Below, piece after piece: positions 33,001 through 42,000 of a stretch of 64,000 bases of DNA. The stretch lies in the IMG/VR virus record IMGVR_UViG_2703718787_000017. One strand, 5' to 3'. Numbering within the stretch: the stretch's first letter is position 1; each line of letters begins with the position of its first letter. Source of the stretch: a virus. Its lineage: Duplodnaviria; Heunggongvirae; Uroviricota; Caudoviricetes. Position numbers: made by a program.

Positions 33001-36000
33001 CCGTAGGTCGAGTGAGTACGGGATTTGTAATGGAAACCAAACAGTTGCAGTGGGAAGGTTCTACGTTCAGGGGAGTCCCAGCCTTCAAAGGTAGAGGCAT
33101 AAACTGGCAGTGGGCTTATCACTTCATCTTTTTCCAGTTCCCAGGTACGGGCAATTTCCGCCAGCTTGCTGGAATAAATTTCAATCTTACCGGAAGGTGT
33201 TTTAAGTGGATTTGCCTCGGGGTCGTCACGAAATGCTTTGTAGGCGACAAAATGACCATTGGGATCTTTACGCTTATAGATACCCATTTTTTTCAGTTCG
33301 TCGTAAGACGGTAACGCCGGATCTTTGGCAAGCATTTTGGCGTACAGATGTTGTAACCATTGTTCCTGCGTGCGACCTTCAGTGAACTTTTGATAGACGT
33401 CAGGTCCAAGACGTTTCGCGACTTCACTCAGGATCCAGTAAATCGGTTTGCGTTCGAATTTTTCGCTGGTGACAGGCTGGAGGAAAATGAGATATCCCAT
33501 GTTACCGGCGTAGTCGTTAGGAATAATATCTTCCTGCTCAACGGTCATCAGGTCTGGCAGCAGAATGTCGGCATATTTTGCCGATGAGGTCATAAAGTTT
33601 TCGATGACCACAATCATTTCGCATTTCGATTCGTCCTGCAGAATTTCATGCGTTTTGTTGATGTCAGAATGCTGATTAACGAGGGTATTTCCCGCGTAGT
33701 TCCAGATGAACTCCATTGTCAGACGGATGGATGGACTTGAAGTAGTTGACTCAATGCTACTTAAGGTCCTGATATGACTGACATTAACCATGATAATACT
33801 GTATGTCCATCCAGTTCTTTCTCTGGGTCTCCCTATCTGTATCAGCAAGTCTGCACCTCAAGTCCTGACACAAGGCTGACACAAATCAATATACTCAGCG
33901 TAGCTAAGCCTCAGTTAGTCCGTAGAGCCAATGGTCGATATACTATCCGCTTCAGACTCAAGGGACAGACCATCCCGTTTCTTTCAGTATCGACCCGAAG
34001 CACAGACAGGAGAGTAGCCACAATGCGTCAGAGAGAGCTTGCAGCCACAGCTAAGACATTCCTACTAGACAAGCCTGAAGTTTCGCTACAGGAGCTTACA
34101 GAGCACCTCCGGTCTATGGCTGAGCAGTTCCTGACAGACGCCAGTGATGACTACTGGAATGGACTTGAGGTCGCTACTCTGGTGGACGAGAAGTCCAACC
34201 TGAAGGAGCTAGCCGCTACGCAAGCCTTGAGTCTGGACCAGCAGAAGGGCATAAGGTTAGCGCTTGAAGTCCTGACCGCAGCACAGCAGAGGGTAGACAC
34301 TGGTGATGCCTCTGGTCTGATTAAGCTGATTGATGATAATAACCATACTGATTACTCAACTATAGGCGACTATACGTCCATTCTGAAGAATGAGCAGGGG
34401 GATAGACCAGCAGTTTTCACACAGGTTACTGCTCCTTGCAGTCACAGCGAGCGTCAGCCATCTGTGGTTTTTTCAAGCCTAGTGTCCTCGCTGCTGGCTG
34501 AGAAGGTCCAGACCCTGAAGTCCTCCAGCTACAAGGACCTGTCGTCCTCACTGAATACCGTCTCTCGGTTCTTACCTGAAGACATGGACCTGATGTCCCG
34601 CTCTGAGTGGCTGGCTGTCAGGGACTCTATGCTTGCTTCTGAGGTGAGACCATCGACAATCAACAAGCTGCTGACCAAAGCGAAGATGTGTCTCGATTAT
34701 GGCCTGATGAATGGGCAACTTGAGGGCCGCAACCCTATTGAACGGATGAAGCTGACCAAGGATATCGACTCCAAGCGCAGAGCGTTCACAGACGAGGAGC
34801 TGGATGGACTTCTTGTCCGGGTAGAGGCTGAGTATCAGTTCACACGACATACCGCTCACACGACCTCTGAGGCTCGCAGGTGGGCGACTCTGGTCTCTGT
34901 GGTCACTGGCGCTCGGTCTGCTGAGGTCTGCCACCTGACTAAACGTGACATTGTAACCTTGGACAATGGACTGGTCTGTATCGACATCAATGAAGATGGG
35001 GGCGGGAAGTCCGTAAAGAACAAGCATTCAGTCCGACTTGTACCGCTGACCGATGGCGCTTATGGGTTTGACCTGAAGTCCTTCCTCGAATGGGTAGACA
35101 TGCAGCCTGACGAGGGTCCTCTCTTCGGGATGACTCCAAGCGCATACTCTAGCTGGTTTAACTCAAGGGTCCTCACAGAGGCTCTCCCAGACGCTGAGAA
35201 CGTCTCTCTACACAGTCTGAGACATTGGCTGGCGACCCGGATGAAAGAGCGTGGAGTCAATCTGGTGGACGCTCAGGGCATCTTAGGTCACAGCAGTCAG
35301 TCCATTACGTATGACCTGTACGGGAAAGGACATGCAGTTGGTAGGCTGGCTGATGTGCTGAAGACAGCTTTACTTTAAGTAGGAAGACCCAAGGTGTAGA
35401 CCATATACGGCTTGATGGTTGAACCTTGGGTCGCTGAAGTCTGACTGAAGTTAGGGAGGGTGATAATAATCATAATCCCTCCTGACTATAGGCCCACTGG
35501 TTCGCCTTCGGCTGTCCGACTCTAAGTCTGTATGTGGTCTTATTTAAACTGGTTCCCTAACTCCAGTACTCCAAATTCCTATGGTCTCCTCTTGACATTC
35601 CTGTTTAACTGTGAGTCGCCTCTGGTCTCTCTTTATATATACTTCCTTAATTCCTGAGGCGTCTTTAGTCCTTGACATTCGGTCCAACCTGTGAGTCACA
35701 TCCGGTCCTCCCTCTATATATATACTTCCTTAATTCCTAGGGTCGCCTTAATCCTTGACATCCAGTCCAACCTGTGAGTCACATCCTGTCGCTAGCAAGC
35801 TAGCTGTCGCGCTACTGTATGCATCACCAGTGGTGGACTTGATTATCACTATAGGGGAACCAACTAATTCAACTACAGGAGATACTCTATGGCACGACCA
35901 ATCGCAACTCACGACAACACGTTCACCAAAGCCTACTTGCAGCAGCACTGCGGGGACCTGCTGTCATTCGATGGTCAGGGCGACCTGAGTGGTTGGCTGG

Positions 36001-39000: not shown

Positions 39001-42000
39001 TCCGTTCCCTGTAGAAGTCCTGCCAGCTCGCAACAGCTTACCGACGCCAATCATTGCTCACACTCTGGCTGACCGCTCTGTGGTCGTTCCTGTCCGTGGT
39101 GGTAAACGACCTGAAGTCGTGACCGCTCCGTCTGGTACTGAAATCACCGTTGAGCCGATTGAGCAAGCTATCCTCGTGTCCCACCAAACCAAGCTATGGG
39201 ACGCTAAGTCATCCACCGGATTCACTCAGGGCACACTTCAGCAGGACGCTATGAACATCTGTGAGAATGTGGTCCGTACCATCAACGCTCGCATGGTCGA
39301 CGTTCTGGAGTCCTCCAAACTGTTGAAGACCGTAGAGCTTCCTGTCCTGACTGGTAGCCTGACCGCTAAGGCAGACGATATCATGGACGCTCTGTATGAC
39401 AACACCGAGTCCTCTTTCGGCTCTGAAGTGTCTGATTATGGCATCATCGCCCATGAGTCCCAACTGAAAGCGCTGTCCCGTCTGGCTGCTAAACAGGGCT
39501 TCTCTGGTGAAGACGCTATCGTGGATATGCTGGGAACAGACATCGCCTACTACAACGGTGAAGACAAGGGTGTGTTCATGCTGGCTAAACGCTTCACGGC
39601 CCTGAGCTTCGGTTGCTTCCGTCATGATGGCGAGAACATTACCGTGGTCTTATCCCGGGATGGTGACTCTCAGTCTAACTCTCTGGAAATCCTCGGCAAG
39701 GTCTTCGTGGTTGCTGAAGCTGCTACGACAATCAAGATGGGTACTGGTAGTGCTACTGCTGTCCTGCCTGTAGTCAAACGCCTGAAGTTCACCAAGACCG
39801 AAGCGTAAGACCATGAGCAGAGGTAAGTCTGGACTGAATATCAGCAGGACTTCAGGTGGTGGATTATCAATGTAATTAATAACTATGGTCTGGACTTCGG
39901 TCTGGACCTTATTAGCGAAGTTATCCACAGCTTAATAACATATACAACTTTATTCACATTAAGGAGGACGCATGGACCTGCATAAAGTCTATCTTATCGT
40001 CTTCCTGTTGAAGCTGGTGCTGGTGGTCGTGCTTACAGTCAGGGTACGGCTGTGAGCTGGCGAGCAGCTAACGATGAGTTTTGGACCAAAAGTTAGAGAC
40101 CTGATTCAATACAATTAAGACACCAATGTTCCCCGGTGCCACCCTGAGTCCAGACCGAGGCCACCGGGGGGGGGGGGCTGACCAGCCGTCTAGACATCCC
40201 GTCTAATGACACAAGGCTGACACAAAGCCTGACACAAAGTCCTTGACTCAATGCAGGACCTCAGGCCTACTAAGGGTCCGCTTCAAGTCCTTGAAGTTCC
40301 AGATGAACTTAATGGGCACATCCAGTTTATCTTTGCCGCGGACGCCGTCGCGGATTGCCGTCATTTGCGGACCATGATCGATAGCATCTGTCCAGCTGAA
40401 GCAGGAGATTGACATTTTGACCGGATTATCCAGCACCGGCAGGCGTTCTATGGTAATGGTATAGGTCGATTCACGCGCGCCACTATTTCCGCCGCTGATG
40501 CCGACATTGCCCGTCAAAATAGGTAACATAGCAATAGCGCGTGCAGTCAGTTCGCCGTTTGCCTGGCGTTGCGGCCCCCAGCCCTGGCAGATATAAGCGG
40601 GTTTTGCTGTGCCAATTTCACGCGCCAGTTTGATGATACGGTCTACCGGGATACCGGTAATTTGCGAAGCCCACTGCGGCGTTTTCGCTGTGTTATCATC
40701 ACCTTCACCAAGAATATAGGCTTTATAGTGACTATTTTTGGGTGCATCTGCGGGTAAGGTTTTTTCGTCATAGCCGACGCAGTATTTATCGAGAAAAGGT
40801 TGATCAACGAGATTTTCGTTAATCAATACCCAGGCAATACCCGCAACCAGCGCGGCATCGGTGCCCGGGCGAATAGGGAGCCATTCATCTTCACGACCAG
40901 CAGCCGTATCGGTATATCGCGGATCGATAGCAATCATTTTGGCGTTCGATTTCTCGCGCGCTTTTTCAAGAAGATAAGTGATGCCACCGCCGCTCATGCG
41001 GGTTTCTGCCGGGTTGTTACCAAACATCACGACCAGCTTGCTGTTTTCAATATCCGTGGTGCTGTTGCCATCATTACTGCCGTAGGTGTAGGGCATGGCA
41101 CAGGAAATTTGCGCGGTGCTGTAGGAGCCATACTGATTGAGTGAACCGCCGTAGCAGTTCATCAGGCGTTTGACCGCCGAGGCTGATGGCGAAGAGCGGG
41201 TCATATTGCCGCCAACGATCCCCGAAGAGTACTGAATATATACAGCCTCATTGCCATATTGTTCGACGGTTTTCTTCAGGCTACTGGCGATAGTATCCAG
41301 GGCTTCATCCCAGCTAATCCGTTCGAATTTGCCTTCGCCGCGTTTGCCCACGCGTTTCATTGGGTAATTCAAGCGATCGGGATGATTAATACGCCGACGG
41401 ATGGATCGACCACGCAAACAGGCGCGTACTTGATGATTGCCATACTCGTCGCTGCCGGTGTTGTCAGTTTCCACCCAGGTGACTTCATTATCTTTAACAT
41501 GTAGACGAAGTGCACAGCGGCTACCACAGTTGACGGAACAGGCACCCCAGATCACTTTTTCGCTGGCCTGTTGTACCGCTGCCGCTGCACTGCGCAGGGT
41601 GAACGGTAAAGAAAAACCGCCTGCAGCCAGCGCCAGAGAACCTATCGCGGTTGATTTAACGAGTGTTCTGCGGCTGATGCCCACCATTCGGTCATTTTTG
41701 GACATAACTCACTCCCTGTTCTTTATCGTTATATAAATGTTTATATATTGAATATTTAGCGCGCTAACAATAGAGGGAGTCTACCCATTTTGGGTTAAGA
41801 ATTATTAATCCATATCAATAGAAGGGTATGAGTAATAAGGTGGGATTATGTTGTATGTTCAAATCGCCGGATGTGTCGTATCCGGCGTTCAGTCGATAAT
41901 GTATTACTGCGGTTCGGCAGGCGCGCCATCCTGGGTAGACTGCGCGGGAGCAGAGACGTTACCGCTGGTGGTGCGGGTATAGAGAATTTTATGCGTATCA

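Follow-up and report, generated by a model that had tools for sequence, protein, structure and literature searches.

The window analysed here is the whole 64,000-nt stretch of the IMG/VR virus record IMGVR_UViG_2703718787_000017 (Caudoviricetes), to which all coordinates refer unless another sequence is named. Inserted in its ynfE gene is a compact, integrase-bearing element of 6,597 bp, all of whose open reading frames (ORFs) lie on the plus strand, and which is probably a satellite that integrates into the chromosome and exploits virulent T7-like coliphages of the K1F group (Kayfunavirus). A preliminary description of this DNA had offered, as one of two readings, that the element depends on an incoming T7-like phage for its RNA polymerase, and that reading is strengthened here by an exact K1F promoter (P2), a K1F-type concatemer junction, promoters that differ with lineage, and purifying selection. 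On balance, and with less assurance, we favour the wider proposal that the element belongs to the first recognised satellite family of T7-like (Studiervirinae) virulent phages. Its members would be 'natural phagemids' of about 6.5-9 kb, excluding insertion sequence (IS) insertions, that copy helper promoters and the helper junction and build mini-heads from their own scaffold and HK97-fold proteins, some of them with promoter arrays addressing two or three helper genera. That the element is a phage satellite with several unprecedented features is a conclusion that we draw from its sequence with moderate-to-high confidence. A full-text search of the literature found no description of a satellite of T7-like phages, in agreement with the earlier remark that no described element of this kind was known in enterobacteria, and a December 2025 overview of satellite families includes none for T7-like phages (PMC12772148).

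Integration site, phage promoters and right-end junction

The features that define the element and its phage-type signals are the following:
33698-33712, plus strand: attL core, 15-bp direct repeat, exact; precise deletion restores ynfE
33740-33885, plus strand: left arm region, with repeats D11 and D18 common to the right arm
35837-35859, plus strand: P1, phage RNA polymerase promoter (-17 to +6, +1 = G35854), K1F phiOR-like
36266-36288, plus strand: P2, Kayfunavirus-type phage RNA polymerase promoter (+1 = G36283), exact K1F match
40060-40290, plus strand: concatemer-junction-like region, with a pre-terminal-repeat motif, a diverged sequence resembling the terminal repeat (TR), a run of 12 G and the right-arm repeats
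40207-40254: right-arm repeats, within the junction-like region
40295-40309, plus strand: attR core, 15-bp direct repeat, exact

The boundaries of the element are marked by AGTTCCAGATGAACT, an identical 15-bp direct repeat present in exactly two copies in the window, where shuffled sequences predict none. In silico deletion of 33713-40309 fuses the two ynfE fragments into a single 808-aa ORF (...DVPIKFIWNYAGNTLVNQ...) that is collinear with the adjacent paralogue ynfF, which bears out the earlier account of a site-specific insertion of about 6.6 kb at the break in the ynfE frame. Over 41000-44000 the flank matches, at 100% identity, E. coli strains whose ynfE carries the annotation of a normal gene and not of a pseudogene; the host is therefore E. 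coli, and unoccupied ynfE sites exist in the same genetic background. The arm-like repeats previously noticed near both ends were found again as the exact 20-nt repeat TGACACAAGGCTGACACAAA (33866-33885 and 40207-40226), and the left arm, which is probably also where the int promoter lies, includes AAGTAGTTGACTCAATGC at 33740-33757. The element thus carries the integration module of a phage satellite, comprising an integrase, 15-bp cores, arm repeats and an insertion whose removal cleanly restores ynfE. An ordinary IS or transposon, an identity that the preliminary description had kept in view, was rejected, as a tyrosine integrase and att sites are present and transposase and inverted terminal repeats are absent.

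Two exact copies of TATCACTATAGGG, at 35844 and 36273 on the plus strand, are the only ones in the window, with none expected. These had been described as T7-like promoters, and comparison with the CACTATAG sites listed from the retrieved K1F (Kayfunavirus) genome upholds that assignment, P2 being exact over 19-20 nt and P1 (TGGACTTGATTATCACTATAGG) matching K1F phiOR at 20 of 22 positions, with the upstream TGGACTT included. P2 (CCTAAACTATCACTATAGG) is identical to the K1F promoters at 5552 and 19998, its 20-mer CTAAACTATCACTATAGGGA is identical to those at 17178 and 20998, the last of which lies just 5' of gene 10, and it is the sole site in the window within three mismatches of the 22-nt K1F consensus. 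P1 is unchanged in five E. coli variants, and both promoters are invariant among diverged E. coli variants, even where the downstream module has been swapped. Transcription from either would run toward the right-end junction, as in T7, and judged by sequence each provides what a T7 phagemid has, a phage-polymerase promoter usable as an origin or entry signal. The arrangement of promoter, ribosome-binding site (RBS) and gene attributed to both sites holds for P1, whose +1 G at 35854 precedes the orf122 ATG at 35889, and fails for P2, which some 520 nt of leader separate from the next gene, at 36810.

At the right end, ACGATGAGTTTTGGACCAAAAGTTAGAGACC (40071-40101) is identical to K1F 39493-39523 at 30 of 31 positions in a short-word BLAST search, and because the K1F copy ends 3 bp ahead of the 178-bp right terminal repeat, this motif represents the left side of a concatemer junction. 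It occurs in 222 phage records; the matches listed are overwhelmingly phages of about 39-41 kb that infect Escherichia, Salmonella, Citrobacter, Enterobacter, Cronobacter and Klebsiella, and 17 of those listed are named Kayfunavirus. The similarity extends into the repeat proper (AAGTCCAGACC.AGGCC..ACC...GACC....GTC.AGAC), where the first ~110 nt align with the K1F repeat, though the repeat-start sequence TCTCACAG is not conserved. Measured against shuffles, a 170-nt global alignment of the junction gave z values of 16.6-19.7 for K1F, 8.9 for CR8 and -0.1 for T7. The element therefore holds the helper-matched cis signals expected of a satellite, namely an exact K1F promoter and a K1F-type concatemer junction. 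Such signals are meaningful in the light of T7 biology: PMC13236587, citing Chung & Hinkle 1990, describes plasmids with a T7 origin, pac and terminal repeat as being replicated, packaged and transduced by T7, and gp18/gp19 are recruited by the complex of RNA polymerase and lysozyme as it pauses at the concatemer junction (PMC3276506). Within the TR-like region, the run of 12 G (40167-40178) corresponds to 5, 6 or 7 G in four relatives (L001, L004, L005 and L024), and is thus a length-variable homopolymer.

Head genes and gene content

The coding features, all on the plus strand, are as follows:
33774-35378, plus strand: int, tyrosine integrase (Pfam Phage_integrase, E 1.7e-13; phrog_1, E 1e-41)
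35889-36257, plus strand: orf122, first gene 3' of P1 (phrog_23123, E 1e-8)
36810-37910, plus strand: HNH/AP2-type endonuclease-like protein, variable module (phrog_99 HNH endonuclease, E 2e-16)
37910-38122, plus strand: orf70, small core protein, kept in all family loci surveyed
38235-38744, plus strand: orf169, scaffold-like core protein with a charged helical C-terminus, always directly 5' of the capsid gene
38819-39808, plus strand: orf329, HK97-fold major capsid protein (MCP) by predicted structure, 329 aa
39813-39875, plus strand: remnant of a gp7.3-like gene, last 20 codons (MSRGKSGLNISRTSGGGLSM) by translation; full-length (79 aa) in relatives
39972-40055, plus strand: 27-aa hydrophobic micro-ORF with a strong RBS, by translation, at the position of T7 gene 19.5

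The product of orf329 had no match in Pfam, PHROG, NCBIfam or the PDB sequences, and none by tblastn in 50,697 phage records. A word-indexed search for homologues returned only relatives at 69% identity or more, and an exhaustive HMMER search 64 relatives, down to about 20% identity. The depth of the alignment mattered for structure prediction: AlphaFold2 reached a predicted local distance difference test score (pLDDT) of 35 on a shallow alignment, a deep one with relatives of 20-40% identity being needed, and a pLDDT of 81 with a predicted template modelling score (pTM) of 0.76 on the HMMER-based alignment. The top PDB and BFVD matches of this model are all HK97-fold capsid proteins or encapsulins (Foldseek E down to 6e-10), and because they are so uniform, the element is predicted to encode its own capsid protein, a divergent HK97-fold MCP. 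No sequence similarity to the helper capsid was detected, as hhalign of the MCP family against gp10 gave a probability of 0.1%. Among the capsid homologues, one remote protein carries Ig-like domains (Big_2, He_PIG), often found on surface-exposed virion proteins, and the most distant ones (20-30% identity) may point to similar element families outside Enterobacterales.

The scaffold-like orf169 is named DUF6971 in RefSeq. Homology of its product to T7-type gp14 was considered and rejected, the best hhalign probability of 5.6% being non-significant and regarded as compositional. The ratio of nonsynonymous to synonymous substitution rates (dN/dS) is about 0.10 for the capsid gene, across dS of 0.46-1.24, and 0.05-0.23 for orf169; from these values both genes appear to be under purifying selection, and simple decay is excluded. 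A self-contained encapsulin-like or gene transfer agent-like shell, serving the host and unrelated to phage parasitism, would be another use for such genes, and we regard it as highly improbable, since the host has no polymerase to match the phage-polymerase promoters that serve as expression signals, cargo and encapsulin-associated genes are absent, and the element, with its integrase and phage junction, lies between att sites.

Several relatives have, 3' of the capsid gene, an ORF of 79 aa with 40% identity to K1F gp7.3 (pairwise E 5e-15), which scores E 0.002 and 19 bits against Pfam VirionAssem_T7, under Pfam's 25-bit cutoff. This homologue indicates gene exchange with T7-like phages and, as far as the sequences reveal, the gp7.3-like gene appears to be the only protein link between the element family and K1F. 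It was seen in three states: the full 79 aa (L004, 7526-7765), a short form of about 21 aa in L005, and the 20-aa C-terminal remnant of the window. The short form (MGKRGKSGLNISRTSGGGLSL), read by eye from the DNA, has an apparent in-frame internal deletion. SRTSGGG(L/I)S is kept in all three states, and is also the C-terminus of K1F gp7.3.

A tyrosine integrase had been recognised at the left end, and the Pfam and PHROG matches of int agree. Its longest ORF encodes 534 aa, and an alternative start at 34023 would give 451 aa, as in the annotation of a RefSeq relative. The nearest phage integrases, 35% identical over their full length, are those of temperate Studiervirinae of Pseudomonas, and at E<=1e-10 the sole phage relatives are integrases of ~40-kb Pseudomonas phages; vB_PsyP_3MF5, the only one of these phages examined in full, is a member of Studiervirinae with its own RNA polymerase and terminal repeats. 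Because these are the only close phage relatives of int, the element family may have descended from, or borrowed from, temperate T7-like phages.

Pfam, PHROG and NCBIfam searches found genes for neither RNA nor DNA polymerase in the element, none for primase, terminase or lysis, and none for portal, core or tail, and no adaptor or head-tail connector matched. The earlier statement that RNA polymerase, terminase, portal and replication genes are lacking is thus sustained by the family searches; a general lack of structural genes is not, given the HK97-fold capsid and scaffold-like genes. A single-subunit RNA polymerase, or a full set of T7-type replication and structural genes, which would mark a T7-like prophage and which the preliminary description had named as telling against its proposal, was not found. 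The gene set (int, orf122, HNH/AP2, orf70, orf169, MCP and two micro-ORFs) is, as in satellites, incomplete for virion formation, packaging and replication.

These observations bear on the second reading of the preliminary description, in which the element is a deletion remnant of a temperate T7-like phage. In a fuller form of it, an integrase-bearing Studiervirinae prophage would have lost almost its whole gene set, and what is left would be inert and decaying. The ancestry of int, the T7-like gene order and one-strand layout, and the gp7.3-like gene, present in relatives and truncated in the window copy, would all suit such a remnant. It is nevertheless disfavoured, because none of the six ORFs detectably resembles K1F proteins (tblastn of six element proteins against K1F gave nothing better than E 0.12), and we now consider it very unlikely. 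This compact architecture is found again and again, in 311 E. coli genomes and several other genera, the capsid and scaffold-like genes are under apparent purifying selection, the capsid sequence is unrelated to gp10, the promoters are kept exact and are replaced between lineages, and nothing in the element is recognisable as a pseudogene of RNA or DNA polymerase, of terminase, or of portal or tail. The remnant idea is left only as a possible evolutionary origin, which the temperate Studiervirinae relatives of int would allow.

Relatives of the element and their lineage-specific signals

A search of other genomes for the same island, proposed in the preliminary description, found related elements in 311 of 5,426 complete E. 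coli genomes (~6%), always chromosomal and, in the occurrences listed in full, all in ynfE. A scan of one genome per species located the capsid gene also in Leclercia, Citrobacter, Enterobacter, Buttiauxella, Kluyvera, Shimwellia and Proteus. Annotated examples have in common int, orf122, the variable module, orf70, orf169 and the capsid gene, and the detectable core over 14 further loci surveyed consists of int, orf70, orf169 and the capsid gene, the last being always paired with orf169 and orf70 in the loci surveyed. There are two integrase/att types, about 31% identical, one of which targets ynfE; the TGACACAA arm repeats are restricted to members with this ynfE-type integrase. The spread through 311 E. 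coli genomes and at least seven further genera, and the existence of two integrase/att types, therefore indicate a mobile, maintained unit. Members of the second type (L012, L014, L015, L020, L021 and L022) end at a sequence resembling a tRNA 3' end (...GGCTCCCTTCGCCCGCTCCA) and are without TGACACAA repeats.

Promoter specificity varies by lineage at two fixed positions, one ahead of the first gene and the other ahead of the variable module:
E. coli: AACTATCACTATAGG, Kayfunavirus type
Kluyvera-type (L007, L019): GAGACCCACACTATAG; AATTAACCACACTATAGAGACC; GATTTAAGGAAGGTACACTATAGGGAGAGAC
Leclercia, Citrobacter and Buttiauxella: tandem pairs about 27 bp apart, ATACCCTCACTATAGGGA plus AACTATCACTATAGGG
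Proteus: ATTAACCCACACTATAGGGAGAC, two copies

Of these, GATTTAAGGAAGGTACACTATAGGGAGAGAC is identical at 31 of 31 positions to an annotated promoter of Citrobacter phage CR8, whose promoter consensus is TAAGGAAGGTACACTATAGG, and as a query it matches 11 sites in the CR8 genome. For ATACCCTCACTATAGGGA, the closest phage matches, to the Vibrio phages ICP3 and N4, are inexact. The tandem pair precedes both units in L011 and L012 and is single in the rest of its group, and tandem dual-specificity promoters were noted in L010, L011, L012, L015 and L025 (for example at 6481/6507 and 7033/7060 of L011), an arrangement which suggests elements tuned to two helper genera at once. Right-end junctions fall into at least five types among family members. 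All follow the Studiervirinae layout of T7, K1F and CR8 (GTTTT..AAAA.T.TGAG, about 30 nt, CCCCATAGSS), and each of the five types sampled aligns with a Studiervirinae junction. Promoters that are exact, conserved in position and replaced between lineages are hard to explain unless cognate phage polymerases read them.

The RefSeq name for the homologue of the variable module here is AP2 domain protein, and in relatives the module is replaced by KilA-N, Rha, HNH_3 or unannotated genes; by analogy, the module after P2 probably interferes with or manipulates the helper. Its resemblance to the swappable anti-phage cargo of other satellites also speaks for a phage-triggered defence island, in which the promoters would act as a sensor, infection would switch on the nuclease (or KilA-N or Rha in relatives) together with a decoy capsid and scaffold pair that poisons the assembly of helper heads, and the element itself, moving by other means, would not be packaged; that IMG/VR and metagenome contigs yielded neither a packaged nor an excised form would agree with this. 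As a full account we think it unlikely, although it deserves to be taken seriously. A defence island has no need for a helper-type junction beside attP, yet all five sampled types align with Studiervirinae junctions; PADLOC detected no known defence proteins or family matches in the element; and the spread across genera, the two integrase types and the conserved small size fit particle-mediated transfer. Since satellites usually interfere with their helpers too, this alternative overlaps the satellite reading.

Several observations weigh against a satellite of K1F-type phages. At -11 and -13, where polymerase specificity resides in T7 promoters, P1 departs from the K1F consensus. After the junction motif, the sequence at which the K1F and T7 terminases cut, at the start of the repeat, is not conserved. 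No excisionase, replication origin or small terminase was identifiable in the element, and a sigma-70 consensus scan calls none of its TTGACA-containing repeats as promoters. The attP junction GCTTCAAGTCCTTGWAGTTCCAGATGRACTCCAYTGTCAGACGG was matched neither in IMG/VR nor in metagenome contigs from JGI/ENA. Three contigs of 6.7-6.9 kb from metagenomes were rejected as excised forms: they contain the element with about 40-60 bp of ynfE per side, and are assembly branch points, that is, chromosomal fragments. Logan/ENA contigs of 6.4-7.3 kb with the capsid gene were likewise rejected as free forms, being ordinary chromosomal fragments. To our knowledge, a capsid protein unrelated to gp10 that assembles on a T7-type portal and core has no precedent. 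Finally, a role in defence only, with the phage promoter as sensor, is possible, and would be compatible with the satellite reading.

Proposed cycle, known systems and further features

As a satellite of K1F-type phages, the element could pass through the following cycle. In a resting cell, the host polymerase would read nothing but the integrase region, a stretch outside the phage-promoter units. On infection by a K1F-type phage, the phage RNA polymerase would fire P1 and P2, the element would excise, and phage replication proteins would copy it from the phage promoters, as for T7 phagemids. The capsid and scaffold proteins of the element would build small heads, sized for about 6.8 kb, on the helper portal and core, with the helper supplying the replisome, terminase, portal/core and tail. 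A speculative volume scaling from T7, which has 40 kb in a T=7 head, makes a T=3 to T=4 head plausible. Polymerase pausing at the junction would recruit the helper terminase, which would cut and package unit genomes of about 6.8 kb, and helper tails would be added. Excised DNA would be ordered as junction/terminal repeat, attP, int, repeats, P1, P2 and head genes, so that it would enter a new cell int-first. T7 DNA entry proceeds by host RNA polymerase transcription rightward from the left end. By the same route, host RNA polymerase would transcribe the leading end (terminal repeat, attP and int) of the satellite, both pulling the DNA in and making integrase.

By analogy, the element would work most like a capsid-forming phage-inducible chromosomal island (cf-PICI) and a T7 phagemid combined. 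cf-PICIs such as EcCI2 are about 10-15 kb, encode portal, protease/scaffold, connectors, small terminase, alpA and a primase-replicase, obtain nothing but tails from their helpers, which are temperate siphophages, and rely on host-type transcription. The element, in contrast, is 6.6 kb, has only capsid and scaffold-like genes, single-subunit phage-polymerase promoters and a T7-type junction, and none of its ORFs matched alpA regulator or primase-replicase domains in Pfam, PHROG or NCBIfam. PLE, the Vibrio cholerae satellite of virulent ICP1, is silent until infection, then excises, redirects capsids and blocks its helper; it measures about 18 kb, remodels the ICP1 coat protein through TcaP, has its own replication initiator and is unrelated to T7-type transcription. 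The present element, known from sequence alone, shares with PLE the chromosomal location and a proposed virulent helper, and differs in having its own MCP gene; no homology to PLE or P4 was detectable in it. SaPIbov5 Ccm co-assembles with the helper's related capsid protein and alters head size, whereas the MCP described here is without detectable gp10 similarity and comes with its own scaffold-like partner. Among phages, vB_PsyP_3MF5 (Warsawvirus) shares a homologous integrase (35%) and phage-polymerase promoters and has terminal repeats, but it is a complete 40-kb phage with RNA polymerase, replication, structural and lysis genes, whereas of these the element has only a non-homologous capsid gene.

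Other comparisons draw on published accounts. The PICMIs (minimalist chromosomal islands that are inducible by phage) of Vibrionaceae are, in the available text of PMC10803314, very small satellites of reduced gene content that use virulent helpers, in which they resemble the element, and that encode no capsid-remodelling genes; the element differs in its HK97-fold MCP, its T7-type promoters and ends and its E. coli host, and no protein homology was detected. T7 transducing phagemids (Chung & Hinkle 1990, as cited in PMC13236587) follow the cis logic proposed for the element, as a T7-type promoter/origin, pac and terminal repeat suffice for the phage to replicate, package and transduce them; they are made in the laboratory, and T7 heads of full size package them as concatemers, unlike the natural element with its integrase and capsid gene. 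The TIGER survey lists ynfE among the genes whose integrity an integrative element controls, reporting the integration site, apparently without analysis of promoters, capsid or phage relationship in the available text (PMC7192596). These TIGER-mapped ynfE elements probably belong to the same family.

T7-like phages are textbook examples of strictly lytic, self-sufficient viruses and leading candidates for therapy. If the satellite reading is correct, even phages that silence transcription in the host and break down its chromosome have parasites, and helper specificity can be gained merely by copying polymerase promoters of about 20 bp and a genome-end signal. With its two head genes, the element would be the smallest capsid-forming satellite known, and would raise the structural question of how a foreign HK97 protein assembles on a T7 portal and core. 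As it is present in ~6% of complete E. coli genomes, it could change how well Kayfunavirus phages work in therapy, for instance anti-K1 phages of K1F type. The family could also mediate gene transfer among Enterobacterales and serve as a natural chassis for T7-based transduction and orthogonal expression, and multi-promoter arrays would give a sequence read-out of the phage genera to which the element of a strain is tuned.

The remaining features of the element are non-coding:
35455-35484, plus strand: conserved hairpin GGGAGGGTGATAATAATCATAATCCCTCC, common to Kayfunavirus right ends and located 3' of phiOR in K1F
35591-35790, plus strand: three direct repeats, about 80-83 bp apart (starts 35591, 35671 and 35754), each with TTGACA and the dyad TGTGAGTCACA
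36289-36809, plus strand: long P2 leader, about 520 nt, from alignment and folding
39877-39914, plus strand: strong stem-loop (-14.6 kcal/mol, z -3.6), its loop UUCG and its tail rich in U, directly after the capsid gene

The hairpin at 35455-35484 is identical to K1F 38985-39008 at 22 of 24 positions and folds at -18.5 kcal/mol. It matches 157 phage records, mostly Escherichia and Salmonella phages, with 100% identity over 32 nt in phiYIO1-1. The stem-loop after the capsid gene is placed like T7 Tphi after gene 10, and relatives carry a comparable hairpin there. Three tandem TTGACA-containing repeats had been noted before and were located again; they are candidates for early host promoters, operators or iterons, and the idea of host promoters like T7 A1-A3 receives no support from the sigma-70 scan. 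The dyad (TGTGA-N-TCACA) lies about 17 nt after TTGACA in each repeat, and has less the look of a -10 box than of an operator or iteron that a dimeric DNA-binding protein would use. The 100-nt windows downstream of P1 and P2 have no marked AT-rich stretch, and TATATATA tracts occur upstream, in the 83-bp repeats.

The first ~240 nt of the P2 leader (36289-36530) are conserved among E. coli variants without a conserved ORF. A hairpin block at 36585-36630 (AACCCAGAAAACGGGTTTGTTAAAAAG) recurs in relatives, twice in L024. Rfam gave no match in the leader or elsewhere in the element, and the leader with its hairpin block may function as a leader RNA or an origin, or as a site of processing. Inside int, a degenerate T7-like promoter look-alike at 34344-34374 (ACTCAACTATAGGCGACT) is conserved in ynfE-type integrase genes, and probably reflects coding constraint and not a promoter.

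Three of the smaller genes vary in how widely they are kept. The orf70 product (MIDPRTP..TLRYRG...SRDELI) is present in all 14 of the further family loci at 47-85% identity across every lineage examined; it had no matches in Pfam, PHROG or NCBIfam, and is a candidate DNA-binding, packaging or excision factor. Distant homologues of orf122 occur in assorted phages of about 47-90 kb (Aeromonas, Cronobacter, Salmonella and Escherichia); the gene is present in the E. coli variants examined (L003, L004 and L005) and was not detected in the other surveyed loci, which include L026, L010, L011 and L019 with a ynfE-type integrase. At the position of the 27-aa micro-ORF, E. coli, Leclercia and Kluyvera members carry one of two alternative small-ORF types (27 or 51 aa), and CR8 gp19.5, a protein with one transmembrane segment, occupies the equivalent position. 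Many relatives carry IS elements (IS66/ISCro1, IS3 and IS100/IS21, in H7-H9, H11, H15, H25 and H29). In L007 (5009-7321), an IS66 lies between two copies of the promoter cluster, and the region has therefore been duplicated around it.

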